This document shows positions 17,791-61,794 of a stretch of DNA of 64,000 nt, one piece after another. The stretch is from a virus, in the IMG/VR virus record IMGVR_UViG_3300045988_108221, positions 4,654 through 68,653 of that record, one strand, 5' to 3'. The stretch's first letter is position 1. Each line of letters opens with the position of its first letter. A program made the position numbers and the translations under genes. The notes under the pieces are model-generated. The model was not told the DNA's origin, made no database searches, and worked only from the letters and a program-made list of their open reading frames with translations.

Positions 17791-19087
17791 TATCTGTCTC
17801 TCCTTTCTCCGTAGATTTCTCTAAAGGAACATCTTGTGGGGTGGATATCACTCGTTGTTCAATTAGAGATGATTTATATTCATCGAGCAGTTGATTGCCC
17901 TTTTGAATATCAGGGAGTTCAATACCAAGAACACCATTTAGTTCTTGACGAGCTTCGTTGATTGTGATAACATTACCATCAACAAGTTTTCTAACTCGTT
18001 CAACGGCATCGGCTTGTTGAGCCTTAGTAGGAGTAAACACAAAACGGAACTCAATTTTGCCACCATAACCAAGTCTATCAACGACATATTTATTGATGGC
18101 ACGTTCAAATATTTTCGCCCATGGCTTAATTGTGTATTCCAGCATCTCGTTGTCTTTTTCCGATGATGTTGAACGGTCATTTGAGATTGCAACCCCAAGT
18201 CGTTCTGGTGGAATGTTAAAGCATGTGGCAATAATTTGTAACAACAGCTTTTGCCAATTTAGAGATGCTGACTCGTCACCAATAGGAGACACTTGTTTTG
18301 CATCTAATTGTGTTGTACCAACGATTGCTACAGCAGATTGACCTTGGATTTCACTTTCGATATACACTCGAACTTTCTCGATTTCCTCTTGAGATGCGTT
18401 TGCACCAAGATTAATCAAATACTTTGGCATCGCATTAGAAGAAATATCATTTGCATACTCTTGTACCTCAGATAGATACTTGATGTGTCGATAGGCTTGT
18501 TCTAATGGTGAATAACCAAACTCATCATAAGTCAGTTTCGTGCGTTGTAACATTGCGATTTTATCACATTTATACCACTCCTGAACACCATTGGCGTTCT
18601 GCATGTATCTTGGCTGGTTTAAATCGCCAGACCAATTTGTGACAACTTCAATCGTTTGAGCATCAATAGGGAATAAATACAAAGGTCTATCCCTTTTAAC
18701 AACCTTTTGTTCAAAGAACGCAAGGTCTAACACAATTAAATCTTCAAATAATTTGCCAATGAAGTCATGGTAATCGTCCACAGGGTTAGGTTGTTTAACA
18801 ATCTCAGTTACTTTGCGAATTGCTTTTTTATTTTCGTTATCATCAATAGAAACAACCTCCCATGGCAATGCTAGGATGCCCTCTCGAATTTGATTAATAG
18901 CACTTCTAGCAATAGGTGTTTTTGCCATGTTTCGTAACGCATCGACACTCAACTTAGTTTCCGTGTTTTTGCGTTTCTTATTACCCCAACGACCAAACCA
19001 TGTTTGTGTTACATTGGCAATAGTATCTCGTGTAACGAAAGCACTCATCCATGCGTAAATTTTTTCTCGTAGGTTCATCGTTTCCAA
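17783..19087 (-). CDS. portal protein
   Basis: 434 aa, immediately downstream of and overlapping TerL; acidic C-terminus. Confidence 0.8.
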   Translation of the reverse strand: METMNLREKIYAWMSAFVTRDTIANVTQTWFGRWGNKKRKNTETKLSVDALRNMAKTPIARSAINQIREGILALPWEVVSIDDNENKKAIRKVTEIVKQPNPVDDYHDFIGKLFEDLIVLDLAFFEQKVVKRDRPLYLFPIDAQTIEVVTNWSGDLNQPRYMQNANGVQEWYKCDKIAMLQRTKLTYDEFGYSPLEQAYRHIKYLSEVQEYANDISSNAMPKYLINLGANASQEEIEKVRVYIESEIQGQSAVAIVGTTQLDAKQVSPIGDESASLNWQKLLLQIIATCFNIPPERLGVAISNDRSTSSEKDNEMLEYTIKPWAKIFERAINKYVVDRLGYGGKIEFRFVFTPTKAQQADAVERVRKLVDGNVITINEARQELNGVLGIELPDIQKGNQLLDEYKSSLIEQRVISTPQDVPLEKSTEKGETDSE

Positions 19088-20763
19088 CCTTTCATGAATG
19101 ATAGTGTGTCCATTCGTTTCTTACGAATTGTACCCATCGCACCAACATTGATAGTCGATGAGTTTTCTAAGAATTTAGATATACACCGTTCTAAACAGTC
19201 AGGTGCATCATCGTGGTCTTTTGGAAAGTTCTTAAGTTGACTTTCGAGAACACGATGGTTTTTGTTAAACTTGATGTATCCCTGCTTTATCTTTGGTGCA
19301 AGCGAGCGTATTCTAGTACCCTTGTTGTCGCTCGCTGTACTACGAGCAGAAATCCAGTTTACATACAGACCCATATCAACGGCGGTCTGCTGTAAAGTCT
19401 TAGAGAAGAACTCTTGGAATACGTTCTCTTCGACAATAAAACCGTCTAAACGACCATTATACTTGTCGAGATACAACAGTATATCATTAATAATAATATC
19501 TGGTGACCTGCGTTCAATGTCGGCTTCTAACACATAGAAATAATTATCTACGCCACGACCGACAAATATAATCGCAGAATAATCAGATGTTCGTGATTTA
19601 CCCATAGATAAATCGACAGATGCATATATCTGTTTCATCTTAGGTAAATTCGTTTCGTCATAATAGTTAGCCTTAATCCACGACTCTTTAAACACTCGAC
19701 TCGCTTCTGTCATAGGGTTGTTTTGATACTCTGAGTTGAACGCTTCATCGTCTTGCATACGCAAAATCATGAGTTCTTGATACCAGTTATCACGAGACAA
19801 TCTCATCTTCTCTTCGTATGAACAATCCATGTGTTCAAATAAACCAAAGTTACGACCCTCCCACATTATTTTGACACCGTCCATCATTTCATCTCGATGT
19901 TCCTCAAAATAATCGGCTGCGTTCTTTGCCGCATCTGGGTCTGACAAGTCGTTAAAGATTTCTTCCCAAACAGTCCAACAAGGACTTTCGGAAAACGTGT
20001 ATACAGCTTTATATATTGAACGATTCCAGTTATTAAATTTGGAGTCGGTCAACACTTTATATAGTAATGATTCATAATGCAATACCGAACCAACATACAA
20101 AAATACAGTTCGAGGATTGCCAATCGGCATCAATACTTTCATGAACCAATCATATAATTTCTTGCGTTGGTTTTCTGTTTCTACTGCTTCGTCATTCTCA
20201 AGGTCGTCCAAGATAACAACTTCTGGTCGAATATTGTTATAACTTGAACCACGTAAAGATTGACCGCTTGACTTTGCAAACACTTGGATTTTGTTCTTTG
20301 TGACAATCTTGTCGCTTGCCCATGTCTTATCACCTTTAAGAAGACCAAAGTCTTTTTTCAAACGTTCATTATCTTCTAGTTCGTCTTTTATCGTTTGAAT
20401 GAACTCCTTGGCTTGTTCAAAGGTATCAGATATAATCAGTATGTTCTTACGATAGCCATACACGATTAACCATATAGGGAACACGACCGAGATAATACGG
20501 CTCTTACCGTGACCTCGTGGTGCCGCACGAACAAATTTGTTATGCAAGTTATCAAAGTGCAGTATCATATTTTCTGCATCCCTAAACATCGAATGATGAA
20601 AGTCGCAGAATGGAGTAGAGAATATATGGGGGAAATATGTCTTGGCGAAGTGTTCCAAGTTTGTAGCACCAATATCTTTGTCAGTTGGTGTGTTATCACT
20701 TGGCTCTGTTGTCGCTCGAGATGCCCCTAGTAGCGTGTCTAAAATATTTTCAGCCATTAACAC
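19075..20763 (-). CDS. terL: terminase large subunit
   Basis: Walker A-like APRGHGKS, Walker B-like VVILDDLEND, C-terminal nuclease-type acidic motifs; 562 aa. Confidence 0.9.
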   Translation of the reverse strand: MLMAENILDTLLGASRATTEPSDNTPTDKDIGATNLEHFAKTYFPHIFSTPFCDFHHSMFRDAENMILHFDNLHNKFVRAAPRGHGKSRIISVVFPIWLIVYGYRKNILIISDTFEQAKEFIQTIKDELEDNERLKKDFGLLKGDKTWASDKIVTKNKIQVFAKSSGQSLRGSSYNNIRPEVVILDDLENDEAVETENQRKKLYDWFMKVLMPIGNPRTVFLYVGSVLHYESLLYKVLTDSKFNNWNRSIYKAVYTFSESPCWTVWEEIFNDLSDPDAAKNAADYFEEHRDEMMDGVKIMWEGRNFGLFEHMDCSYEEKMRLSRDNWYQELMILRMQDDEAFNSEYQNNPMTEASRVFKESWIKANYYDETNLPKMKQIYASVDLSMGKSRTSDYSAIIFVGRGVDNYFYVLEADIERRSPDIIINDILLYLDKYNGRLDGFIVEENVFQEFFSKTLQQTAVDMGLYVNWISARSTASDNKGTRIRSLAPKIKQGYIKFNKNHRVLESQLKNFPKDHDDAPDCLERCISKFLENSSTINVGAMGTIRKKRMDTLSFMKGWKR

Positions 20764-22354: not shown

Positions 22355-22371
22355 TCACAAAGTCTTTTAAA

Positions 22372-22422
22372 GGGCATACATAGGTTTATATCTTAGGATA
22401 TATTCTTATGTATGCCCTTTTT
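22372..22422 (+). terminator. terminator of the plus-strand cassette
   Basis: 11-bp stem GGGCATACATA / TATGTATGCCC (22372-22382 / 22407-22417) followed by TTTTT. The 24-nt loop carries an operator-like box. Confidence 0.65.
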
Positions 22423-22722
22423 GTGTTTCTTGGGTTACATCTGTATGTTTCATTTGTAGTCTCACACGTATGTTAACAGGTTTGGTCTCAAACACAATAT
22501 CTGACTATAAGGCAAACACGTTAGTGTTTATTGTCGAAGACAATCTTATAGGTTTAATACTTATGTATTCTTTAGAGTATTCCTTATAGATTGCTTCGCA
22601 ATATTCCTTACGGAATGTCTTTCAAGTCGGTTTCTTAAGTTTGGGGTAAAACCTTTTTCAAAAGCTGTTTCTTAAAACTCTTTCAAGAACGCACTTGCTT
22701 TCAAACCATAAGTTAAAACTCT

Positions 22723-22757
22723 CTCTACTTATAGGGTAAAACATTTGATTTTTGTAA
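22723..22757 (-). promoter_or_regulatory. 35-bp late-promoter-like element, copy R2
   Basis: Minus-strand TTACAAAAATCAAATGTTTTACCCTATAAGTAGAG. Points toward terS through the antisense strand of the recombinase cassette. Confidence 0.5.
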
Positions 22758-22939
22758 CACTTTTTTCTTAAAATTGGATAAATATTTTATTTTACATGGT
22801 AAAATTTACCCCTCAAAAATGCCACTCAGCTCAGTAAATATCTGTGTTTCAAGACTTGAAAAAATTTTTTCCAGTTTATGAGTAAAAAATGCCCCATAAG
22901 TCTTAAATCTATAAAATGCGATACAGGATTTTTAACTCG

Positions 22940-23234
22940 CATGGTACTAGGCTGGTGTCACACTCCTATGGTAGTGCTTGGGTTGGACGGCATCTGACCC
23001 ACATGGGATAAAATCGAACGAATGTACGTTGGTAAACACAACCATAGTATCGTGATGAATTTTCACAAGCACAACACTAGGGTCGTGATTTTGGATGGAA
23101 AATAGTTTGGCTGCGGCCTGTAGTTAGTCTGACTAAAAATAAAGCAATCACCATCCTATGATGGTGATTAACTATGTTGAAAAATATTGTCCAAACGATA
23201 CACAGTCCTAGTATTGCATCTCCCTAGTACCATG
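22940..23234. repeat. 12-bp perfect inverted repeat CATGGTACTAGG flanking a 271-bp segment
   Basis: CATGGTACTAGG at 22940-22951 and its reverse complement at 23223-23234. Part of a TACTAGG motif family (22945, 23207 inverted, 23223 inverted, 23257, 23293, 23744). Confidence 0.7.
23134..23169 (-). terminator. hairpin plus T-run in ORF-free DNA
   Basis: 10-bp stem AATCACCATC / GATGGTGATT (23146-23155 / 23160-23169), followed on the minus strand by GCTTTATTTTT. Confidence 0.45.
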
Positions 23235-23718
23235 TCACAAACTTATAATAACGCTATACTAGGAAAACATACATCAAAAAACATAATCATCATACTAGGG
23301 TTTACATATTATAGAAAATCATAAGTTACCTTGTATGCAACCCTAAAAATTTCTACAAAAATTTTAAACGATTGTATATTCGATAGACAACTCAAATTGG
23401 AAAATACGATTGTTCCATATGATGTTTCATATCTTAGACAATCTATTGAAACGATTGTTTTATCGATAGTATTTGCGATTGTTTTCTACATATGTTATGT
23501 GTTTAAATGTATGAAACCATAGATAAAACATGGGTTTGTAGACCATTGTATGGTGTGTTTTGTATATAGCCATTGTTTGTACTGGGGTATGTTTCTTATG
23601 TGTGGACTTAGGTATGCTCTTGGGTTTGTTATGATTATACCGCCCCCAGCTGAGAATGGTTCTCCCTTTTGGATATTGAAAATTTTCGATACGCTTAGGG
23701 GTGTCTCATTGGTTCATA

Positions 23719-23732
23719 TGAACATATGTTCA
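23719..23732. promoter_or_regulatory. 14-bp perfect palindrome TGAACATATGTTCA (GAAC-N4-GTTC core)
   Basis: Read directly; flanked by further CATATG half-sites (23715-23740). Confidence 0.6.
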
Positions 23733-24377
23733 CATATGCACCATACTAGGGTTAGTCAATCAATCGAATAGTATCAATGTAATAGAATATCTAATTGCTT
23801 ACATTCATTATCACTTGTATTCTCAATATGTAGATGTCATATATTGAAAACTATCGATATATATGTTTGTACATAGAGTATTCGTTCATGTATCAACTAA
23901 CGGTTTACAGTTGGGTAACATATGAGTAGATACTCATGTATGCACTATATGCATTATACCTATGATTTTAAGTAATGTTTAATATTGGTCTTGGCTGGCG
24001 GTGGTTGTAAAATTGTATTTTACACAATGTTTTTTATTTGGGTACATCAATAAGGGTTCAAAATTCTGTAGTATCACTCGCCTAAGTCAATGCCATTGTA
24101 CACCCTACGTACACTACCAAAGTACAACCACATCACAATACAATACGTTTATACATCTGTTACATACATGAGTAATACATATGTATAAAACAAATAAAAA
24201 TACAACGATATACAACGATTGTATATAACAGATATATTTACCGTTGTATGCTCATTTGTATTCGTTGCATATGTTTATATTCGAACGAGATTAAACGCAC
24301 CGTATAACTCAAATAAATCAATCGTTTATTCTCATTTAGTCGTGCGTATTGATAACGCCTGCGTTATGTGTAGCATA

Positions 24378-24391
24378 TGAACATACGTTCA
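24378..24391. promoter_or_regulatory. palindrome TGAACATACGTTCA (GAAC-N4-GTTC core)
   Basis: Read directly; one mismatch from the 23719 copy. Confidence 0.55.
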
Positions 24392-24440
24392 TATGTTATG
24401 TTTGTATGAATGGTTGTTTATATATTGAATATAAATATAA

Positions 24441-24465
24441 GCGGTACAGAAATGATCTGTACCGC
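24441..24465 (-). terminator. GCGGTAC-stem hairpin after gene 24476..24736
   Basis: 10-bp stem GCGGTACAGA / TCTGTACCGC with a 5-nt loop. The downstream T-run on the minus strand is weak. Confidence 0.45.
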
Positions 24466-24475
24466 TTGTTATTGT

Positions 24476-24736
24476 TTACATATAACATTCAACAAGACTT
24501 TGCACGGTATCTTTATTTACAGTATCAAGGCTATCCAAATATGTGCTATTTGTATGTATAGCTATTAACTTATTTTTATAGCCTTTTTTACTAATAATTT
24601 TAAATCTAATTAAATAGTTCCATCCTTCCATATCGTTAAAATATAGGAATTTTACTGATGTACATTTAATGTTATCAATTAAATGTAGATTTCTTTGTAA
24701 AAAGTCAAATAATGCATTATATGTATATGTTTTCAT
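24476..24736 (-). CDS. hypothetical protein (AT-rich cassette)
   Basis: Start moved to ATG 24736 (MKTYTYNALFDF..) behind AAGGGG; 86 aa. Confidence 0.5.
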   Translation of the reverse strand: MKTYTYNALFDFLQRNLHLIDNIKCTSVKFLYFNDMEGWNYLIRFKIISKKGYKNKLIAIHTNSTYLDSLDTVNKDTVQSLVECYM

Positions 24737-24753
24737 TTTAATAACCCCTTTTC

Positions 24754-24945
24754 TTAACATTCCCAATAATCAACAATATCATTATGGGCAGTAATTAAAT
24801 CAATCATGTGAAAATATAAATATTCTTTTGAACATTCCCATAACTCATTAGAATTATTATTAATAGTTGCCACATCATGAGCGTGATTTATTGCATAATC
24901 GATGTACACCATGGATATATACGTTATGAGACTGCCAAAATACAT
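24754..24945 (-). CDS. hypothetical protein (AT-rich cassette)
   Basis: 63-aa ORF; no convincing SD seen. Confidence 0.3.
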   Translation of the reverse strand: MYFGSLITYISMVYIDYAINHAHDVATINNNSNELWECSKEYLYFHMIDLITAHNDIVDYWEC

Positions 24946-24972
24946 ATGGTCTAAAAACGCTATATTTGCTTT

Positions 24973-25176
24973 CTAAGGCGTTTTATATGTTTTACATACA
25001 ATCATAAGCGAATGTTTTTACACGCACCCTATAGCGTAAAATAACGAATGTTTTATTGAGAAATGTTCTCAAAATATATGGATGCCTACGCTGGTGTTCT
25101 CATTTAGGATTTCTAATTGAGAATTGCTGCTTAAGGTGTACACGCAAGAAAAAGCGGTATCTATAAGGATACCGCC
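24973..25176. repeat. non-coding repeat module, copy A
   Basis: Aligns block by block with 28637-28810: TACAATCATAA, ATAACG, TTATTGAGAA, ACGCTGG, TTCTCATTT, TCTAATTGAGAAT, then a GGCGGTAT-stem hairpin. Confidence 0.65.
25146..25176 (-). terminator. rho-independent terminator after gene 25184..25495
   Basis: GCGGTATC / GATACCGC stem (25154-25161 / 25168-25175), followed on the minus strand by TTTTTC. Confidence 0.7.
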
Positions 25177-25183
25177 GTATAAA

Positions 25184-25495
25184 CTATAATTCATTTAGAG
25201 TGTTTTTGTAAACCGTGTATAATTCATGTTCAAGGAACGGCAACCATCTCCATTTATCCGCTTTGTCTAAAATCCTTTCATTGATAAACACAATTTCAGA
25301 TATAACATAAGCACGATAATTCATAGTATTTTCGTGTTCCTCTTTTACCCTACTAGGGTTATAACCGTAACACTCGGCATCTCGTAAGAAATTTAATAAT
25401 TTACCTTTATCTTTTGTAGGCTTGCCACTTGTAGCATAATTAGATACTACGTTCAATATAGCTTTTTTCGTGTATTCGTTTTTGATAGTAAACAT
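25184..25495 (-). CDS. hypothetical protein (AT-rich cassette)
   Basis: 103-aa ORF with a terminator directly downstream. Confidence 0.5.
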   Translation of the reverse strand: MFTIKNEYTKKAILNVVSNYATSGKPTKDKGKLLNFLRDAECYGYNPSRVKEEHENTMNYRAYVISEIVFINERILDKADKWRWLPFLEHELYTVYKNTLNEL

Positions 25496-25525
25496 TATTA
25501 TATTACCTCTTTTTATTCCTTTCGT

Positions 25526-25915
25526 TTATACGATATAACTACTTGCAACGGCGAGCCGTTCGCCGTCAATCATAATCTGAACACCTTTATATAAGTTAAT
25601 AGGTAGTAAATATCTTTGATGTGTATAACTATAAATATGCTCGTTTTCATAAATCAAAAATTGCCCTTGATTATTCTGTAATTTAACTTTATATAAATCA
25701 AACTTGATATAATACCGCCGTAAAACACGATTATTTTTATCAAGTAAGATATAAAACTCTTTGCCTTCGCTATCACATGGATAATAAGTGATAGCGTTAT
25801 CTATTTTATATAGTGTACCATTGTTATATAATCGGTTGCGTTTTTCTATTGTGATAGGTTTAAACTCTACCCACTTTAAACCATAATACACTTTTATGTT
25901 TTCTACTGTTTTCAT
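25526..25915 (-). CDS. hypothetical protein (AT-rich cassette)
   Basis: 129 aa; GGAGGG SD. Confidence 0.55.
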   Translation of the reverse strand: MKTVENIKVYYGLKWVEFKPITIEKRNRLYNNGTLYKIDNAITYYPCDSEGKEFYILLDKNNRVLRRYYIKFDLYKVKLQNNQGQFLIYENEHIYSYTHQRYLLPINLYKGVQIMIDGERLAVASSYIV

Positions 25916-25997
25916 GTGTTCCCTCCGATGTGATCACTTATGATTATATTCCACGGTTAAACACAAACGGTATAACCGTGGTTAAAAAATTCTTATG

Positions 25998-26066
25998 TTA
26001 TAATGTTTGATTGTTTTTCGTGCGTTGAATAAACACGATAATTAAACTTAATAAAACTAAAGCCAT
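25998..26066 (-). CDS. possible 22-aa hydrophobic peptide
   Basis: AAAGGGGA SD, then MALVLLSLIIVFIQRTKNNQTL. Below the ORF-track cutoff. Confidence 0.3.
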   Translation of the reverse strand: MALVLLSLIIVFIQRTKNNQTL

Positions 26067-26098
26067 ATAAATATGTTCCCCTTTCGATTGATAAGCAA

Positions 26099-26401
26099 CT
26101 ATAGATATAACTCATCAAGATAATATAGCAAATCAAGATATCTATTGAGAGACTTTATAAAGTCATTCAAATTGTTGTATTCCTTATGTGTTCCCTTAAC
26201 AGTAATAAAACAATAATTATTACCTTGCACAAATATATGTATATCGTAGTCATGATATAATAACGTATGTATTTTATCGTATTCTACATAGCTATAAAAC
26301 ATATAACTTTCTGCATATGTGATAATTTCATAATCTTTTGACATATCAAATATAAATGCATTTAGGTTTATAATCTTATGTATATTATCTTTTGTTTTCA
26401 T
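26099..26401 (-). CDS. hypothetical protein (AT-rich cassette)
   Basis: 100 aa; AGGGGTG SD. Confidence 0.55.
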   Translation of the reverse strand: MKTKDNIHKIINLNAFIFDMSKDYEIITYAESYMFYSYVEYDKIHTLLYHDYDIHIFVQGNNYCFITVKGTHKEYNNLNDFIKSLNRYLDLLYYLDELYL

Positions 26402-26411
26402 ATTTTCACCC

Positions 26412-26771
26412 CTAACAATAAACTACAAATGGACTATACATATCTGTGTATGCAACACATGATTCACAACAAATATTTCTAAATGTTTTTTCATAGTCAA
26501 TCGATATCCAATACGGTAAATCACCATATAAACCACTTTCATAAAAATATAAGTCTATATAATTATAAATATCTGTATAATACCAACAATCACCATTTTT
26601 AATATATTCGCTTGACTCGTCAATATTCAAATCTTGACTTAAAATGTCAAGCATATCCATTTCATATTCTGAAAATTCGTTGATACACTCAAGAAAATCA
26701 TGCAATCCATCAAGTGTTCCTAACTCGTTTTTATATTGTCGTGCATATTGTAACAATGTTATAAATTCCAT
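26412..26771 (-). CDS. ArdA-like antirestriction protein (C-terminal domains only)
   Basis: YNYIDLYFYESGLYGDLPYWISIDYEKTFRN parallels the Tn916 ArdA segment YDVARYYIEETGALGEVPASLQNYIDYQAYGRD (from memory). Acidic; lacks the ArdA N-terminal domain. Confidence 0.4.
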   Translation of the reverse strand: MEFITLLQYARQYKNELGTLDGLHDFLECINEFSEYEMDMLDILSQDLNIDESSEYIKNGDCWYYTDIYNYIDLYFYESGLYGDLPYWISIDYEKTFRNICCESCVAYTDMYSPFVVYC

Positions 26772-26782
26772 GTTGTACCTCT

Positions 26783-27367
26783 TTAACCGTTAATTTCTGT
26801 AATAAGTCCGATATCTTCACCGTCAATAGTAAAATAGTATTGACTACAATAATTTATTAATTCCTTTGTATCTAATAAGTCATTATGGTTATTATGATAA
26901 TGTTCTATAATTAATTCTATATCTTTATCAAAATCATAAAAACTTTGTTGTAATTTTCTCCATTCGTTCGCAAGTTGTAAACATTCGCTATCAGATAATA
27001 AAAGATAATTCTCTAACTTAAAGCCGTTAACATCAAATATTTGATATTTTACGTTTTCGCCGTTTATGTCTGCATTAGGTAAAACAAAACGAATAAGCAA
27101 TGATAATTTTTTATTATCGTTTATAAACATTTCTAAAGCATCACCATAATAGCTATATTTATAAAGACATTGATAATGAGTAGTAATATTATATTCTTTT
27201 TCTTGTACATTAGATAATAATATCATATCAATAAGTTCGTCAATCATTCCATTATGAATGATATTATCAAGCATATTTTTCTTTATTTTATTTTGTACAT
27301 CAATAGATAATTCATTATATTCATATATATTAATTGTCTTTGTTTCTGTTTTTGTAATTGTTTTCAT
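26783..27367 (-). CDS. hypothetical protein (AT-rich cassette)
   Basis: Start moved to ATG 27367 (MKTITKTETKTINIYEYNELS..) behind AAGAGG; 194 aa. Confidence 0.5.
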   Translation of the reverse strand: MKTITKTETKTINIYEYNELSIDVQNKIKKNMLDNIIHNGMIDELIDMILLSNVQEKEYNITTHYQCLYKYSYYGDALEMFINDNKKLSLLIRFVLPNADINGENVKYQIFDVNGFKLENYLLLSDSECLQLANEWRKLQQSFYDFDKDIELIIEHYHNNHNDLLDTKELINYCSQYYFTIDGEDIGLITEING

Positions 27368-27368
27368 T

Positions 27369-27635
27369 TTAACCTCTTTCAATAATCATATATAATTCTT
27401 CATTATTTACTTTTTCAATGTGTAACGGCGAAAATTTTCGAATAAATCTATTTAAGTATTTAGATGTGGTATGAGAATATTTTTCTCTATCTTGATACAT
27501 TACATCATTTTTACTATCATATACGGCAATCAAAGTATTATAACTTTGAAAAGCTGTTAGATTTAAACAGATATTAATAATAAATTGATTGGGAACCGTG
27601 TTACCCTTACTACTTAACATATTTTGTACTAACAT
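27369..27635 (-). CDS. conserved phage/plasmid protein of unknown function
   Basis: The pattern NQFII....FQSYNTLIA....YSHTTSKYLNRFI recalls a widespread unnamed phage/plasmid family (memory only). Confidence 0.5.
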   Translation of the reverse strand: MLVQNMLSSKGNTVPNQFIINICLNLTAFQSYNTLIAVYDSKNDVMYQDREKYSHTTSKYLNRFIRKFSPLHIEKVNNEELYMIIERG

Positions 27636-27748
27636 AATTTTTGCCCTTTCATTCGTTCCAATACGGTATATACTCTATTCATACCGTACACCATAGCCAC
27701 AGTAAACACCATAGCCAAAACATTTTTTAAAATCATAGATAATTCCAT
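27629..27748 (-). CDS. possible 39-aa membrane peptide
   Basis: MELSMILKNVLAMVFTVAMVYGMNRVYTVLERMKGQKLC. Stop overlaps the next start (ATGTTAG). First ORF after promoter 27900-27928. Confidence 0.35.
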   Translation of the reverse strand: MELSMILKNVLAMVFTVAMVYGMNRVYTVLERMKGQKLC

Positions 27749-27899
27749 AGGCTACACCCTTTCGATTAAATATATAACCTTTTCTATGGTCTTATTGTAC
27801 CGCTTAGTAGGTGCAATGTACAATAGTTTTTATCTATGGTTGCCATAGTTTTAAGCTATGGCGGTACACCATTGAATACCGCTATACAATAGATATATA

Positions 27900-27928
27900 T
27901 AAATACCACAAAAACACGAATTTGTCAA
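27900..27928 (-). promoter_or_regulatory. sigma70-type promoter for cassette 27748->25184
   Basis: Minus-strand TTGACA (27928-27923), 17-nt spacer ending in TGG, then TATTTA. Confidence 0.55.
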
Positions 27929-28259
27929 ATTTTAGCAAAAACCAAGCGTAAATGAGAATGTCTCTCAATAAAACGTTTAAATATTTGCGTTCTAAGGTCT
28001 GTCTAAAGTCTCCGCCTTATGATTGTATGCAAAAAGTCAAAAACGCCGTACAACGCAAATAAATCAATTCTAGAGGTATTGTCTAAATGAGAATGACGGT
28101 GGTATCTTTTGTATGCATACATAAGTTATGAATTTGTTTGTCTACAATAGACACCGTTGTATATCGAATGTTTTCTATATGTTATTAACAAATATAATCA
28201 TTATTGACTAATAGCTAAAATTTTCGATATGGTTTACGCAGGCGGTGGTCGTGCAATAT

Positions 28260-28457
28260 GGTTGTATGCAATCGAATTTCACGCAACGGTTTTTCATCTG
28301 AATATATGTTCATATGTTCACACATCGGTTATATGAATAAGTTTTCATATGAACATACATTCATTTGAAAACATATGAATATATGCTCATGTATTCATTT
28401 ATTGAACACATGAAAGTATGTTCAATTATTCATATGTTATAATCGGTTGTATGCAAT
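28260..28457. repeat. CATATG-palindrome array bracketed by 13-bp direct repeats
   Basis: GGTTGTATGCAAT at 28260-28272 and 28445-28457. Between them are 4 CATATG sites (28311, 28346, 28372, 28431) inside TTCATATGAA / GAACATA..TTC-type palindromes. Confidence 0.7.
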
Positions 28458-28636
28458 TTAATTGTGGTATCTCGCAGGATTTACCGTATTGAGAATATTT
28501 CTCATTTAAGCTGCGGTATATTGTGATGTCTTCTATAGGCGTACACATTCATATGTTTTGTACATAAAAACAAACAAACGCAAAAACACGCAAAAAGTCA
28601 TATATCATAAAATCGTGTATTTTCGCTTGTATGCTC

Positions 28637-28810
28637 GTTTAGGTGTTTTATGTACAATCATAAACGGAACATCTGAAAACTGCCGTATAACTCAAATAAC
28701 GCAACTTTTATTTGAGAACAATTATCAAATACGCTGGCTTTTCTCATTTGTAGTATCTAATTGAGAATACGATGGTAAAACAAAAGGCGGTATACCTTAA
28801 GTATACCGCC
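28637..28810. repeat. non-coding repeat module, copy B
   Basis: Paralog of 24973-25176 (see that entry). Confidence 0.65.
28777..28810 (-). terminator. rho-independent terminator
   Basis: 10-bp stem GGCGGTATAC / GTATACCGCC (28786-28795 / 28801-28810), followed on the minus strand by TTTTGTTTT. Confidence 0.75.
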
Positions 28811-28816
28811 AATGGT

Positions 28817-28918
28817 TTATAGGTCTTCTAGTCCCTCTTCTAAGTCTTTTTTATAATCTTCATCTACGTTATCAAGTAGCGCCTTAATATATTCTTGTTC
28901 AACGATAAAATAAAACAT
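28817..28918 (-). CDS. possible 33-aa acidic peptide
   Basis: MFYFIVEQEYIKALLDNVDEDYKKDLEEGLEDL, with GGAGGA 10 nt upstream and a terminator directly downstream. Confidence 0.35.
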   Translation of the reverse strand: MFYFIVEQEYIKALLDNVDEDYKKDLEEGLEDL

Positions 28919-28987
28919 AAGTTGATCATCCTCCGTTATTATTAAGTGCTTAAAGCGTTGGCGGTACATAAGTACCGCCGTTAGTGT

Positions 28988-29281
28988 TTATCTGAGTGGC
29001 TTTTCATCGTGTAGTATGATTTTGGCAACTCGCCAATTATATTGGCTTAAGTTTACCATGTATTCACTACCGCTTTTTGTACTACCGATTAGGCTTGAAT
29101 GTTTTTCGCCATCAAAATAATCACAAATTGTGGTGGTTTGATAGATACGCTCATTCAATGGATACACTTTAGACCAATTAGATTTACTATATTCAATCTC
29201 AATCAAATAAGGCTTTTTTAATAAATATCTGTGTTCCTCTAGGTAGTCAACTAATTTTGATAAACTAGAAAATTCTTTCAT
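28988..29281 (-). CDS. hypothetical protein (AT-rich cassette)
   Basis: Start moved to ATG 29281 (MKEFSSLSKLVDYLEE..) behind GAAAGGGG; 97 aa. Confidence 0.55.
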   Translation of the reverse strand: MKEFSSLSKLVDYLEEHRYLLKKPYLIEIEYSKSNWSKVYPLNERIYQTTTICDYFDGEKHSSLIGSTKSGSEYMVNLSQYNWRVAKIILHDEKPLR

Positions 29282-29486
29282 GAGTTTTACCCCTTTCAAT
29301 ATAAAATTATAAAAGACCTACGAAAGACATTTATCATCTTTCGTTACACTCATTATACACCTAGAGGGGCAATCTGCATAATAGAAAAAATCTATGGATA
29401 GTCATAACTTTAAGCTATGGCGGATAACCGCACTCCGCAGGATTTATCCATACAATTCTATTGTGTACAACTGAATTTTACGCCGT

Positions 29487-29600
29487 CATATGAATATGTG
29501 CTCATATGTTCATGTATCGTTACATGAATGTCTGTTCATATGAACAACTGTTCAGATGACAACACATGAACGAATGTTCATATGTTCAAACGCTCATATG
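29487..29600. repeat. second CATATG-palindrome array
   Basis: 5 CATATG sites in 114 bp (29487, 29503, 29537, 29579, 29595). GAAC-N4-GTTC cores at 29542-29553 and 29568-29579. Flanks resemble those of the 28260-28457 array (CAATCGAATT..). Confidence 0.7.
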
Positions 29601-29785
29601 ATTGAATACAATCGAATTGCATGAGACTATATCGAAAGTTTTCACGCTTTAATCATCTAAAGTATTCGAACTGATTGAAAAAATTCGATTAGTTGCAGGA
29701 TTTTCGATATACTGCACATCGAAAATTTTCGACCTTTAGTATACTAAAGTTTTCGATTAGATGGAAAATTTTGAATATATTAAAG

Positions 29786-29799
29786 TGAACAAATGTTCG
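29786..29799. promoter_or_regulatory. palindrome TGAACAAATGTTCG (GAAC-N4-GTTC core)
   Basis: Read directly. Confidence 0.5.
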
Positions 29800-29859
29800 C
29801 TGGTTGCAGGCGGTCTCGCAGGTCGTGGCGAGCACATGGGCGGTCAATATGTAATGCCT

Positions 29860-30400
29860 TGAAAAAACACACATATGTATTAATATATGAGCGTATATAT
29901 GTATAAAAATAGGGGTGAGATATATATGTATATATACATATATAAAATACCGTGGACATATACATATAAATATATACAAATGTAAAAATCCGTGGACAAT
30001 ATCATATATATAAACAATAAAAACCACCGCAGAATTGATTTAAATCGTTTATACGGTGTGTTTATATCCACGGTGGTATATTTGTATACCACATATGTGA
30101 AAACCACCGTACAATGCAAATAAATGAATTTCATGAGATGATGTGGTCGTATGAACATATGTTCAATCATGGGTATTGCCACGTGGTATCATGGAAGATT
30201 AAAAACAAACAAATGTTCGGTTGTTTTTCTCTTAGGCAGCATCCGTGGTTCGTCAATAGAATACCCCATGAACACACCATAATACACACCAATAGATAAA
30301 CACATATATCATCGACACATATATACGTTTGTTTAATACCACGATATATATAAATAAAAAAATACCACCGCATAAAACGTGGACACATAACGAACGTATA
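29860..30400. repeat. AT-rich (ATATAC/TATATA) block with short iterons; origin-like
   Basis: CCGTGGACA at 29950 and 29990, ACGTGGACA at 30377. ACCACCGY at 30023, 30103, 30364 and inverted at 30070. TATATA/ATATAC runs between them. Confidence 0.5.
30152..30165. promoter_or_regulatory. second perfect copy of TGAACATATGTTCA
   Basis: Identical to 23719-23732. Confidence 0.6.
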
Positions 30401-30608
30401 ATGTATAAGCAATATATGCTGCGGATGCACGATTGTTTCATGCAGGTGTTCGCCATGATTTTTATGCTGTGGTATTTATAATAGACAACAGGTAGTACAC
30501 GCATAAATGTTAGCTGTATTTAAAATGGTGGTATGATTACCTGTGTGCTGTGTTTGGGATGCATCACACAATGTTGGTGTATACATGCACTCATCTGTTG
30601 TCATTTAT

Positions 30609-30638
30609 AGAATAACACAAGACGGTTTGTGTTGTCAA
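30609..30638 (-). promoter_or_regulatory. sigma70-type promoter firing into the ORF-free island
   Basis: Minus-strand TTGACA (30638-30633), 18-nt spacer, TATTCT. Preceded by an A-tract-rich stretch (30650-30710). Confidence 0.45.
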
Positions 30639-30717
30639 TAACCAATGTGTTTTTCTTGGGTTTTATTTTTTGAAATCTTGTTTTTTATTTTTTGGTTTTT
30701 AATTTTTTGGATTTAGG

Positions 30718-50747: not shown

Positions 50748-50837
50748 TGGAGGAAAGTGTGGGATTTGAACCCACGGAACATTTCTGTTCGACAGTTTTC
50801 AAGACTGTTGCATTAAACCAAACTCTGCCAACTTTCC
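50748..50837 (-). tRNA. tRNA-Ser (anticodon UGA), type II, CCA encoded
   Basis: Hand-folded. Acceptor GGAAAGT/ACTTTCC. Anticodon arm ACAGT-CTTGAAA-ACTGT. Long variable arm GAACA-gaaa-TGTTC. T arm GTGGG-TTCAAAT-CCCAC. 3' end TCCA. Confidence 0.85.
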
Positions 50838-50934: not shown

Positions 50935-51026
50935 TGGAGGATGGTACAGGATTTGAACCTGTGGTCGTTTTAATGAACGACATCTCTTTAGCAAAGAGAC
51001 TCAATAAACCACTCTGACAACCACCC
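50935..51026 (-). tRNA. tRNA-Ser (anticodon GCU), type II, CCA encoded
   Basis: Hand-folded. Acceptor GGGTGGT/ACCATCC (G3-U70 wobble). Anticodon arm TCTCT-TTGCTAA-AGAGA. Variable arm GTCGTT-cattaa-AACGAC. T arm ACAGG-TTCAAAT-CCTGT. 3' end TCCA. Confidence 0.85.
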
Positions 51027-59735: not shown

Positions 59736-60170
59736 TTACCCCCAATAGTTTAAATCTGACATTTCCCATATCTCAAGCTCTGTCTCTGGATATGGCTTAC
59801 GGATAATAAAGATAAACGTTTCGTTCTTACCATAGTCAAAAATGAACAAGTATGAACGCTTGTCTCTTTGATATGAGCCAAAACCAATATGTTCAACATT
59901 CCAATTTCTTGCAAAAGGTTTTTGTTCTTCTTCAAATACAACCCTGAGTGCATTACCAACTAACTGATAGTCAAAAGGCTTATGAGTATCTGCAATAGAC
60001 TCAAGTTTAAGAAACACTTCTTCTTTATCAGTAGTTTTTACTTTTGCCAGATATTTATGGCTGTTAAGTCGTGACATAAATGTATTTAGGTTGACATCTT
60101 CGATTTTTCTCTTAGGTGTTGGTTTCTTTTTATTGACAACCAAGAAACCTAGTTGGTTAACCCTACGCAT
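59736..60170 (-). CDS. hypothetical protein
   Basis: 144-aa ORF; start uncertain (weak SD). Confidence 0.45.
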   Translation of the reverse strand: MRRVNQLGFLVVNKKKPTPKRKIEDVNLNTFMSRLNSHKYLAKVKTTDKEEVFLKLESIADTHKPFDYQLVGNALRVVFEEEQKPFARNWNVEHIGFGSYQRDKRSYLFIFDYGKNETFIFIIRKPYPETELEIWEMSDLNYWG

Positions 60171-60501
60171 TGTCGTCTAGCCATTTATTAATGTCAAACT
60201 GTTTGCGTTCTCTGACAGTTTTATTTGTATTGGCTTTTGCGAACTGTACTGCATTTAACTCGTTTGCTTTAATGAACAGGTCGGTTAAAGACATTTCTTT
60301 GTATTCCAACGAGTTCATGTATTTATGCAATTTCAACATAGAGTTTTCGTCAATCTGCATAAAGAATGAGCGAACTTTAAAGAACTCAGATGTTGGTTTG
60401 TTATTCTTGAACGCACCATTTTTGGTACACTTCTTAAAGTATTGCATGGCAAGTGTCCATGCTTTTTTCTTTGGTTCTTGTTGTTCAAAGTCTGTTGCCA
60501 T
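60163..60501 (-). CDS. hypothetical protein
   Basis: Start moved to ATG 60501 (MATDFEQQEPKKKAW..) behind CAGGAGG; 112 aa. Confidence 0.5.
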   Translation of the reverse strand: MATDFEQQEPKKKAWTLAMQYFKKCTKNGAFKNNKPTSEFFKVRSFFMQIDENSMLKLHKYMNSLEYKEMSLTDLFIKANELNAVQFAKANTNKTVRERKQFDINKWLDDNA

Positions 60502-60655
60502 GTTTTGTTCCTCCTGTCGGTCTAATAGTTTGTTTCTGACTTGTTGTACCATCATTATATCACACCTGTATTACCAAGTCAAGAAAGTTTTGTCTGACTA
60601 AGAAAAATACAATCGGCTTGCCGATTATTGCGAAGCAATTCATATGGTTTGTCGT

Positions 60656-60696
60656 ATAACTTATGTATTCGAACGTAGTGAGAATACATAAGTTAT
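60656..60696. repeat. 15-bp perfect inverted repeat (hairpin) built on the ACTTATGTATTC box
   Basis: ATAACTTATGTATTC (60656-60670), 11-nt loop, GAATACATAAGTTAT (60682-60696). Confidence 0.7.
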
Positions 60697-61012
60697 CAAA
60701 CAAGTATTCCACTACTGTATGAATACCTTAAGTAGAAAAACAGAGAGTGAAAACATATGTATAGGGAACTTGTGTATTAAGACCATTGTTTTAAATCAAA
60801 GGTATGAATAACCAATGTATTCATACCAATGTTTTAATCCAAAAGTATTCAAACACAAGTATACTTATGTATTAATTCTAAGGTATATTCTTATGTATTA
60901 ATACTAAGGTTTGATAGGGTATCACAAAAGTTTAAATTTGTCAAGGATAAATCTCACACTTTTACATAAAATTTTAGACAAAAATACAACATTGTTTGAA
61001 CGCCAAAATACC

Positions 61013-61050
61013 CAAGCCGTATTTGACTTGGGTTGATTTTGGTTCTCAAT
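61013..61050 (-). terminator. terminator-like hairpin after ssb
   Basis: ACCCAAG / CTTGGGT stem (61020-61026 / 61037-61043), followed on the minus strand by ATTTTGG. Confidence 0.5.
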
Positions 61051-61062
61051 ATTTGGTTTTAA

Positions 61063-61662
61063 TTAAAATGGAATGTCTTCAGAGTTATCAAATGTTTCTG
61101 CCATTGGAGAGCCACCAAAGGACTGAACACTATCGGATGCAGAACCACCGAACGCACCACCAGAGCCACCTGTGATTAAGTCGATAACTTGAATACCTTT
61201 GAGTTTTAAAGACACACCGTACATAGATGGTGTTTCATATGGTTTAGCACCAAGCCACAATGCAACTTTAGAGCCTTTCCAAATTTGTGTTTTAGTGTCC
61301 ATTGGTTTTTTGTTACCATCGACTAATTGGATGATGTTTTCATGAACATTACCGTTTTTGTCTGTAAACTCAGTCTTGGTAGTTGCCTTGAGTTGCCATC
61401 CGTACTCCTTAGATTTAGTTAATGGGAACTTAGGACGGTCAACTTCTTTTTCTTCATCAACTCTAGCATCGTGAGTGTCGGAGTTTTCCCAAATGTCCAT
61501 CAACTGTTTTTGTAATGCTTTGGCATCTGACTCTTCAAGTTTAATGGTAATAGTATATTTATTTTGACCCATGTAATCGTCAACGACACCATTAATCTTG
61601 CAGAACACAGACTCACCAACTGGAGTCATTACATCAATGATTTTTTCGACTGTTTTTGCCAT
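61063..61662 (-). CDS. ssb: single-stranded DNA-binding protein
   Basis: Start moved to ATG 61662 (MAKTVEKIIDV..). Gly-rich tail GGSGGAFGGSASD.. ends in the acidic tip FDNSEDIPF. Confidence 0.7.
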   Translation of the reverse strand: MAKTVEKIIDVMTPVGESVFCKINGVVDDYMGQNKYTITIKLEESDAKALQKQLMDIWENSDTHDARVDEEKEVDRPKFPLTKSKEYGWQLKATTKTEFTDKNGNVHENIIQLVDGNKKPMDTKTQIWKGSKVALWLGAKPYETPSMYGVSLKLKGIQVIDLITGGSGGAFGGSASDSVQSFGGSPMAETFDNSEDIPF

Positions 61663-61713
61663 ATGCTTTTGTCCTCTTTTGTAAAAAAAACTTTGCGGTA
61701 TAACTTTCCGCAC

Positions 61714-61742
61714 TTGTATTGTCGCACAATGTGTGGTATACT
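61714..61742 (+). promoter_or_regulatory. promoter for dnaE (extended -10)
   Basis: TTGTAT (61714-61719), 17-nt spacer ending TGG, TATACT (61737-61742). Confidence 0.55.
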
Positions 61743-61794
61743 GTCAATAGGGTAAATGAAAATTTTTACAATAGCAATTGTAACAGGAGGCAAT

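Follow-up and report, generated by a model that had tools for sequence, protein, structure and literature searches.

We analysed a 64,000-nucleotide stretch of viral DNA (positions 4,654 to 68,653 of IMG/VR record IMGVR_UViG_3300045988_108221; hereafter the window), and in particular its region from 22.4 to 30.7 kb, in which four islands lacking a credible open reading frame (ORF) are interleaved with small AT-rich genes, here called cassettes. Almost all genes of the window lie on the minus strand. Recognisable functions include the terminase large subunit (TerL), a portal protein, a DnaB-like helicase, a DnaG-like primase, an SSB-like protein, ThyX, a dNMP kinase and two DNA methyltransferases, and a tape-measure protein carrying a lysozyme domain indicates a structural module of the siphovirus type. 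No cultured phage showed DNA similarity to the region in either the near or the distant search mode. IMG/VR yielded 31 related loci on contigs of up to ~73 kb (the larger ones mostly 64–73 kb), and the sole match among 185,579 species genomes was a 232-kb contig of Veillonella sp. 3310, which contains a relative with 64% TerL identity (L032). Since this relative lies inside a Veillonella contig, we regard the window as an uncultured siphovirus of ~68–70 kb whose lineage includes a Veillonella prophage, and Veillonella is probably the host of the phage itself.

An earlier note, made from the sequence alone, had described the islands as poor in ORFs and built from recurring blocks, and both observations proved correct. 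On the minus strand, ORFs of 60 aa or more occupy 18% of the islands (whose boundaries are approximate) compared with 92% of the remaining window. Self-comparison against shuffled sequence gave a repeat content in the four islands ~15 times that of the shuffles: the islands share 55 direct and 48 inverted 12-mers, against 3.6 ± 2.4 and 4.6 ± 2.7 after dinucleotide shuffling, while two coding control stretches were at background. Alignment of 24973–25176 with 28637–28810, which the note had matched block by block, produced 128 identical positions and a score of 153 (shuffles, 44 ± 9). The listed motifs were all present at, or within a few bases of, where they had been placed: CCGTAYAAYNCAAATAA at 24300, 28046, 28683 and 30107 (all plus strand); TTCTCATTT at 24329, 25097, 28499 and 28741 on the plus strand and at 27950 and 28085 on the minus strand; TTTAAGCTATGGCGG at 27850 and 29409; GGCGGTGGTYGT at 23997 and 28241; and the palindrome TCGAAAATTTTCGA at 29719. 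For AAAATTTTCGATA, two of the three sites claimed were confirmed (23679 and 28217), but the copy at 29701 reads only ATTTTCGATA. The dominant repeat family, the palindrome CATATGAACATATGTTCATATG (hereafter O1), was missing from that list, and further families comprise CTATGG/CCATAG, TTTTCGAT, GGTGGTAT, CCGTGGAC, ACTAGGG and TTGTATGC. GC content is 26–27% in the cassette genes at 24476–27748 and 33% in those at 28817–29299, compared with 33% in the islands and 38% in the remaining window.

Signals for transcription were also reassessed. The terminators placed near 23134, 25146 and 28777 are indeed minus-strand sites with a hairpin and T-run, and the region holds 12 such terminator-like sites where 3.6 ± 2.1 are expected. 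Of the promoters suggested at 27900 and 30609, the matches themselves were found, both on the minus strand (TTGACA-17-TATTTA and TTGACA-18-TATTCT, respectively), but promoter-like sequences as a class are not enriched. The site at 30609–30638 is the best promoter match of the region and is followed by 1.3 kb before the first gene. Palindromes of the CTATGG/CCATAG family lie upstream of two of the promoter-like sites (Table 1).

Much of this repetition can be described in terms of one module. An iterated nhmmer search seeded with 28600–28815 defined a unit of ~220 nt, block B, represented by 41 full-length copies in 33 sequences (the window plus 32 loci), with 3–6 copies per genome. Forty of the 41 copies are in gene orientation, and 37 of these 40 begin 4–22 nt past the stop codon of an ORF of 50–200 aa. 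Read in that orientation, every block opens with a predicted terminator, a GGCGGTA...TACCGCC hairpin with a T-run, in which the stem sequence varies while pairing is kept. An insert, CATATGAA..TTCA, follows in some copies. Then come two palindromes, IR-1 (ATTCTCAATTA-N7-TAAATGAGAAT) and IR-2 (TTGAGAAT-N2/3-TTCTCAAT), both built on the half-site TTCTCAWTT, and last a 24-nt box in two mutually inverted copies. The second of these arms, an asymmetric box that we call box 2 (CCGTAYAACGCAAATAAATCAATT), is found 49 times in the window and the 32 loci, and its exact sequence occurs among 2.9 million IMG/VR contigs only in those of this phage group. The end of block B lies just upstream of the promoter region of the next gene. 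In many copies of a more distant group, a sigma-70-like TTGCGT-17-TACAAT is found ~16 nt past the block end, and the next gene, preceded by a GAAAGGA-type ribosome-binding site, starts 240–350 nt further on. We considered a widespread element resembling miniature inverted-repeat transposable elements and rejected it, as exact box 2 and the pattern of the island 1 core (described below) are confined to this phage group in IMG/VR, bacterial genomes not having been scanned.

Table 1. Positions of genes, modules and motifs in and beside the 22.4–30.7 kb region (window coordinates; terminators and promoters are predicted).
Feature	Position	Strand	Remarks
TerL	19075-20763		
Tyrosine recombinase, 185 aa	21527-22084	+	Pfam Phage_integrase, 9e-24
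Bidirectional terminator hairpin	22369-22420	both	inverted repeat I15; 24-nt arms, 88% complementary
Island 1	22423-24440		2 kb ORF-free, between last cassette terminator and bidirectional terminator
Island 1, internal terminator	23145-23170	-	hairpin + T-run
Island 1, single-copy core	23614-23793	-	180 nt, conserved across 26 sequences
Block B1	24225-24465	- (gene orientation)	nhmmer E = 6e-21; copy closest to recombinase gene
B1, box 2	24300-24316		
B1, IR-1	24328-24356		
B1, O1	24377-24392		
B1, terminator	24439-24467		
Cassette ORFs (96 and 63 aa)	24476-24945	-	
Block B2	24952-25177	- (gene orientation)	nhmmer E = 1e-38; begins 7 nt past stop of 103-aa ORF
B2, IR-2	25056-25072		TTGAGAAATGTTCTCAA
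B2, IR-1	25097-25123		
B2, terminator	25153-25176		
Seven AT-rich orphan cassette genes (103, 129, 100, 119, 199, 88, 39 aa)	25184-27748	-	GC 27%
Island 2	27749-28776		includes start of block B4
Island 2, promoter-like site	27794-27822	-	
Island 2, CTATGG/CCATAG	27832-27864		upstream of promoter-like site
Block B3	27859-28072	+ (inverted)	5' part degenerate
Island 2, promoter-like site	27900-27928	-	
Island 2, O1 array	28295-28440		5 sites
Block B4	28608-28811	- (gene orientation)	nhmmer E = 3e-48; begins 6 nt past stop of 50-aa ORF
B4, box 2'	28683-28699		
B4, IR-1	28741-28767		
B4, terminator	28786-28810		
Cassette ORFs (50 and 103 aa)	28817-29299	-	
Island 3 (listed from its minus-strand end)	29282-30717		putative entry control region of array
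Island 3, leader hairpin	29320-29344		
Island 3, CCATAG motif	29390-29423		upstream of promoter-like site
Island 3, O1 array	29487-29605		4 sites
Island 3, TTTTCGAT repeats	29640-29770		
Island 3, LexA-box-like site	29786-29799		TGAACAAATGTTCG
Island 3, (TA)n-rich segment	29870-30010		with CCGTGGAC repeats
Block B5	30031-30132		box-2 palindrome only
Island 3, O1	30151-30166		
Island 3, GGTGGTAT repeats			between O1 and promoter-like site
Island 3, promoter-like site	30609-30638	-	
Island 3, phased A-tracts	30640-30717		first in minus-strand order

The islands are truly non-coding by four tests. Island 1 can be aligned end to end with 6 close relatives at 79–84% nucleotide identity, and every small ORF in it is broken in these relatives by stops or frameshifts. 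The earlier note had named assembly frameshifts as an alternative; since relatives carry no intact ORFs across the islands, that explanation fails. Variable sites in two island ORFs (the 73-aa family 8 of the distant group and the 41-aa ORF at 22947–23072) were distributed 12/11/9 and 8/7/5 by codon position, with no third-position excess, compared with 5/2/54 in the gene at the TerS position and 39/27/68 in a cassette gene. An alternative genetic code was also considered, and recoding TGA, TAG or TAA one at a time restored no long ORFs. Similarly, tblastn of the relatives' upstream ORFs against the islands, a search for decayed genes, returned only similarity that DNA identity explains: the matching "proteins" are low-complexity Y/I/C/H-rich translations of ACATATAT-type DNA, and they break in the window. 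ORFs of island 3 and their counterparts in one relative (L028) share 40–52% of their amino acids at a DNA identity of 77%; the real gene that flanks them reaches 80%. The same ORF-free architecture is common to more than 20 independently assembled contigs, and it is therefore not an assembly artefact.

The genes between the blocks are a different matter. No cassette protein had a match in Pfam, PADLOC or NCBIfam; among PHROGs, the 88-aa cassette gene hit one family of unknown function and there was one further marginal match. A profile of ORF family 1 found nothing credible among PDB sequences, and a search for cassette homologues returned only the query itself. The 119-aa cassette protein (26412–26771, minus strand) is identical to a record named "MAG TPA: hypothetical protein [Caudoviricetes sp.]" from contigs of up to 68,735 nt, a length that gives an approximate full genome size. 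In the cassette region of the Veillonella prophage (L032 4455–5048, plus strand) we read from the translation a 197-aa protein whose HNHPSGDP motif is characteristic of RadC/JAB-domain proteins, a hint that the cassettes may include genes of the anti-defence type.

Whether blocks or genes are conserved had been left as a question by the earlier note, and the answer is the blocks. BLAST coverage among 23 more distant loci was 13 for 24950–25130, 10–12 for 27950–28100, 11 for 28700–28800 and 17 for 23600–23700, whereas the genes between blocks were covered in 0–10 of these loci and several in none. The cassette genes at 25184–27748 are patchy in their presence among relatives, and clustering the ORFs located upstream of TerL in 21 genomes gave 138 clusters, of which 80 have a single member (a count from mechanical ORF calls that includes some spurious ORFs). 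Depending on the genome, one and the same block type follows gene family 13, 19 or 1. In eight pairs of block copies, similarity switches abruptly from 88% identity or more to 70% or less, with change-points scattered over model positions 82, 140–142, 160, 170–175 and 190–196; this scatter argues for homologous exchange rather than cutting at one site. A further trace of rearrangement is the 63-aa ORF (24754–24945, minus strand), which corresponds to the C-terminal two thirds of a 93-aa family (residues 14–62 are 71% identical to residues 44–92 of L010:5196–5477). It is 5'-truncated, abuts the edge of block B2 exactly, lacks a ribosome-binding site and is probably a dead relic left behind by a deletion. 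Of the 31 IMG/VR contigs, 17 end less than 10 kb upstream of TerL, and two of these (L021 and L029) stop precisely where the block copy closest to the recombinase gene begins, as fits assembly breaks at repeats and strain-variable DNA.

Island 1 is bounded by the bidirectional terminator hairpin, which closes a plus-strand gene pair (the recombinase and an 84-aa gene) and whose alifold z-scores lie between -10 and -11 for either strand. The distant groups, the Veillonella prophage among them, also have an ORF-poor stretch of ~2 kb at this position. The internal terminator also has a counterpart at about the same place in the distant group, with a stem of CATCTC/GAGATG instead of CACCAT/ATGGTG, although the alignment there is weak. 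Within island 1 lies a core that contains the invariant strings GTATTCTATT, ATCGAAAA, TCCAAAAGGG and GGGGGCGG as well as a palindrome, TGAGAA-N3-TTCTC, at 23651–23664. The pattern CCAAAAGGG-N14-CTGGGGGCGG matched once in each of 23 stretches of IMG/VR contigs, all of these contigs being relatives of this phage. No RNA covariation supporting a structured RNA was found in the 26 core sequences. Being single-copy and conserved, the core is more typical of a unique DNA site than of a promoter, and we consider it a candidate cis-acting site for packaging, a terminus or an origin.

Islands 2 and 3 each contain an array of O1 palindromes, with common site spacings of ~35, 16 and 26 nt. With at most one mismatch, the O1 16-mer has 7 matches in the window, all in islands (0.43 expected), and perfect GAAC-N4-GTTC sites number 6 in the 4.7 kb of islands against 2 in the other 56 kb. 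The core of O1 is the GAAC-N4-GTTC core of the LexA consensus of B. subtilis, CGAACATATGTTCG (PMC8270828); the SOS box of this phage's host may differ. The LexA-box-like site at 29786–29799 keeps its position in L028 (CGAACAGATGTTCG, a perfect match) and L010 (AGAACAAATGTTCT), with different upstream flanks. However, the upstream region of the group with 90% TerL identity has degenerate GAAC-N4-GTTC sites only, the Veillonella prophage has none in 21.6 kb, and the literature offered no usable LexA or SOS motif for the host. For these reasons the link to LexA is a lead rather than a result.

On balance, we lean towards the view that the region from 22.4 to 30.7 kb is a hyperplastic array of accessory genes and that its ORF-free DNA serves as a cis-acting scaffold for regulation and recombination. 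The terminator of block B would insulate each cassette, and the palindromes and boxes would be operator-type sites at which DNA-binding proteins of the phage or host control how active the next promoter is. With 3–6 copies of the module per genome, homologous recombination between them could change gene content by adding, removing, swapping or truncating the intervening orphan genes. Island 3 would be the entry to the array, with its predicted strong promoter and phased A-tracts, AT-rich repeats, GAAC-N4-GTTC palindromes and four-site O1 array; island 1 would be the exit, beside the Xer-like and terminase genes and containing the single-copy core. Several points weigh against this interpretation. 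Sigma-70 promoter-like matches in the region number 67 where 69 are expected, and no canonical promoter can be placed inside block B. A terminator–promoter unit needs ~100 nt and block B has 220, and promoter and terminator logic alone leaves the 1.4-kb and 2-kb islands unexplained. The linker role draws on only 8 recombinant pairs, and the assignment to Veillonella on one relative with 64% TerL identity.

The large islands may instead be mainly cis-acting DNA for replication or packaging: island 3 would contain an origin, its short repeats serving as iterons beside an AT-rich unwinding segment, and the island 1 core would be a pac site, a cos site or a terminus at which the neighbouring terminase acts. 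We think this unlikely but give it some weight, and it can coexist with a regulatory role for block B. In island 3 the (TA)n-rich segment is flanked by short repeats (CCGTGGAC, TTTTCGAT and O1), as might suit an origin, yet DnaA boxes are not enriched (23 against 27 expected) and the helicase, primase and SSB genes are 20–30 kb away. A packaging site could account for a core that is present once per genome, conserved in 26 sequences and free of RNA covariation. The company kept by the neighbouring recombinase is a further point in its favour. The gene for this 185-aa protein opposes the direction of every other gene and adjoins the terminase genes, and its homologues (~45% identity) are found in many phages of Streptococcus, Bacillus and Clostridium, including Streptococcus Javan prophages. 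In Bacillus phage PK2 (L067 6989–7522) and Sporosarcina phage Lietuvens (L068 6998–7546) the homologue is divergent and directly next to TerL, and the order in Lietuvens is terminal repeat (437 bp, at the genome end), ORF1, int and TerL. This repeated synteny ties the recombinase to the packaging module and suggests that it serves packaging or late functions and not integration. Against a packaging site, the contig ends miss the core, several falling on the repeated block instead. In addition, the TerL of the window is 33–36% identical to Mu-like terminases. A Mu-like TerL suggests headful packaging, for which the pac site usually lies in or next to terS.

Two observations on these comparison phages should be recorded. 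Past its recombinase homologue, Lietuvens carries ATTTTTCGATACGG and the similar ATTTTTGATATGG (L068 7630–7700), which resemble the core string GAAAATTTTCGATACG. A TTTTCGATACG-like string such as that beside the Lietuvens recombinase gene is absent in PK2, and TTTTCGATA is weakly enriched in the window (4 matches against 1.1 expected), so we treat this likeness as a possible coincidence. The GenBank record of PK2 opens with more than 50 consecutive C (read as G on the strand of the record; L067 8490–8543), which looks like a sequencing or assembly artefact.

It is doubtful, but conceivable, that the region forms a two-tier switch of the kind known from SPbeta, in which the 185-aa protein would bind box 2 (or IR-1 and IR-2) and host LexA would bind GAAC-N4-GTTC, so that expression of the accessory genes would be coupled to both lysogeny and DNA damage. 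Box 2 is asymmetric, group-specific and intergenic, and it resembles the SPbeta repeated element (SPBRE) and the 26-bp SroF box. The core of the LexA consensus is matched by O1 and by the LexA-box-like sequence at 29786–29799, perfectly so at the orthologous site in L028. Moreover, the recombinase gene runs against all others and has its own terminator, as prophage-expressed genes often do, and the protein is a candidate trans-acting factor. However, it consists of an Xer-like catalytic domain only, aligns with the catalytic domains of XerC and XerD and keeps the R..HxxR..H..Y positions in that alignment, while MrpR and SroF combine a core-binding with a catalytic domain and have lost catalysis. 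Its homologues elsewhere are linked to terminase genes and not to repeats, and the scarcity of GAAC-N4-GTTC in some relatives and the lack of a usable host LexA motif in the literature, noted above, count against the LexA tier. A broader version can be imagined in which the Xer-like protein is the partner of the boxes, either as a regulator like MrpR and SroF or as a recombinase of low specificity, and joins with host-LexA O1 arrays in a non-coding hub coupling swappable orphan and possibly anti-defence genes to prophage state and DNA damage. We hold such a hub to be improbable on the sequence evidence; if real, its control architecture would be one not known from any phage of the Negativicutes.

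Non-coding RNAs encoded by the islands, whether antisense or leader RNAs with pairing repeated blocks as in the RNA-based immunity of P4 and P1, seem quite unlikely to us; the earlier note had suggested that at least parts of the islands are probably transcribed although they do not code. The inverted block B3 and block B4 face each other over 540 nt of ORF-free DNA, so convergent transcription is possible there. Locally stable hairpins are numerous, with alifold z-scores down to -7, and there is one compensatory change at ~22590–22605 (ATTCC/GGAAT to ACTCC/GGAGT). Nevertheless, the hairpin signals are equal on both strands and thus behave as DNA palindromes, and a long structured RNA was rejected when sliding RNAalifold over the 7-way alignment of island 1 gave only local, strand-symmetric hairpins. 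Consensus folding of the best-conserved element, the core, gave an energy of -6.5 kcal/mol with a single covarying pair. Nothing in the region matched Rfam 15 at gathering thresholds or credibly at E < 1, its weak matches (E 0.15–1) being miRNA-like hairpin models. A call of tRNA-Lys(ttt) by ARAGORN at 27797–27871 (plus strand), with a 7-bp acceptor stem and an ACCA end, was likewise rejected: it does not match RF00005 even at E < 10, its stem is broken in L001, and in L028 it is a simple hairpin. The sequence is pieced together from half-hairpins of GGCGGTAC-type terminators, and a promoter-like site overlaps it. In the window as a whole, gathering thresholds were passed only by two tRNA-Ser genes, on which ARAGORN and Rfam agree (50748–50837, tga, and 50935–51026, gct; minus strand), both within a short intergenic stretch of the replication module.

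We regard as very unlikely an integron- or lox-like system in which the adjacent recombinase cuts at IR-1 and so excises, inserts or inverts cassettes. The geometry of IR-1 (inverted arms of 10–11 bp around a spacer of ~5–7 bp), the placement of a repeat with imperfect inverted repeats 4–22 nt after each cassette gene, a tyrosine recombinase gene at one end of the array and a chimeric block with its junction at IR-1 (L015 6129–6341) would all be in keeping with it. However, the change-points of the recombinant blocks are scattered, though this is a small sample of 8 pairs, and no segment was seen in opposite orientations among the relatives. The recombinase falls below all NCBIfam cut-offs, scoring 26.6 bits against a cut-off of 265 for the integron integrase model TIGR02249, and has no N-terminal domain. 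It is encoded on the plus strand, convergent with the minus-strand cassettes, whereas in integrons the arrangement is divergent. Lastly, decayed coding sequence, assembly error or recoded genes are hardly worth entertaining: the truncated remnant at 24754–24945 is one cassette ORF that speaks for decay, against an ORF-free layout shared by more than 20 independent assemblies, relatives' proteins that match no further than DNA identity carries them, and stop-codon reassignments that open no long frames.

The only other irregular stretch of the window is at 60000–64000, where ORFs change strand several times and the GC skew changes sign. It may be a regulatory or lysogeny module; those of its ORFs that were tested had no Pfam match.

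Among known systems, the closest to the scaffold that we favour are the promoter-early stem-loop (PeSL) cassettes that T4-type phages carry in their hyperplastic regions (Arbiol et al. 2010, PMC2839356; Comeau et al. 2014, PMC4122927). Like block B, PeSLs are repeated composite units between small, mostly orphan genes in a plastic region, and related phages differ there by insertions, deletions and replacements that arise by recombination between the repeats. A terminator stem-loop (here predicted), many copies between small ORFs and recombination between copies are all found in our region. The strong early promoter of a PeSL has as its nearest equivalent TTGCGT-17-TACAAT, which lies outside the block in many copies and belongs to a class of matches that is not enriched. 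Block B differs further in its four palindrome half-sites and inverted pair of 24-nt boxes, and its ~220 nt are several times the length of a PeSL. The phage too is different, a siphovirus of ~68–70 kb related to a prophage and not a T4-like myovirus, and PeSLs have no counterpart to the ORF-free islands of 1.4 and 2 kb.

In the MrpR/YopR/SroF system of SPbeta, a repressor with an integrase fold binds the SPBRE box in about ten intergenic regions, and LexA controls an antirepressor of MrpR/SroF (PMC10516654; bioRxiv 10.1101/2025.11.27.690993). The likeness consists in an asymmetric, phage-specific intergenic box of 15–26 bp, a protein with the tyrosine-recombinase fold and the LexA boxes of the SPbeta circuit. 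Unlike that system, our region has a protein reduced to a catalytic domain with its residues kept, and boxes that are parts of larger post-terminator modules. Integrons share small orphan genes in one orientation, each directly followed by an element with imperfect inverted repeats, and a recombinase at the end; the differences are a recombinase that is not IntI and is convergent, the lack of a fixed crossover and cassettes that appear to have their own promoters and terminators. The LexA (Cheo/SOS) boxes of Firmicute prophages such as SPbeta have the same GAAC-N4-GTTC core and AT-rich spacer in non-coding DNA of a temperate lineage (PMC8270828). O1 departs from them in its flanks, mostly T/A and not C/G, in its extended CATATG...CATATG form and in its arrangement in arrays of 4–5 sites at fixed spacing instead of one or two sites over a promoter. 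GIL01 provides another example of such boxes in a Firmicute prophage. Dense promoters, terminators, repeats and small genes are also characteristic of the terminal regions of T5 and the host-takeover module of SPO1. The earlier note had drawn this analogy with host-takeover or first-injected regions, and we do not find it borne out: the phage is a siphovirus of ~68–70 kb with a TerL-64% relative inside a Veillonella contig, and nothing points to a terminal location, a first-step transfer of DNA or a strictly lytic lifestyle.

Phage genomes are usually more than 90% coding; of this one, ~7% is conserved non-coding DNA, more stable than the genes that it separates. To our knowledge, little is known of phage biology in Veillonella. 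If the modules are units of terminator, operator and promoter that double as recombination linkers, they would extend the PeSL principle beyond T4-like phages and provide a handle on how orphan genes are shuffled and controlled in the phages of this commensal of the human mouth and gut, with box 2, IR-1/IR-2, O1 and the core as defined targets for binding and reporter assays. The region seems best described as a version of the PeSL principle, larger and more elaborate, in a different lineage of phages.

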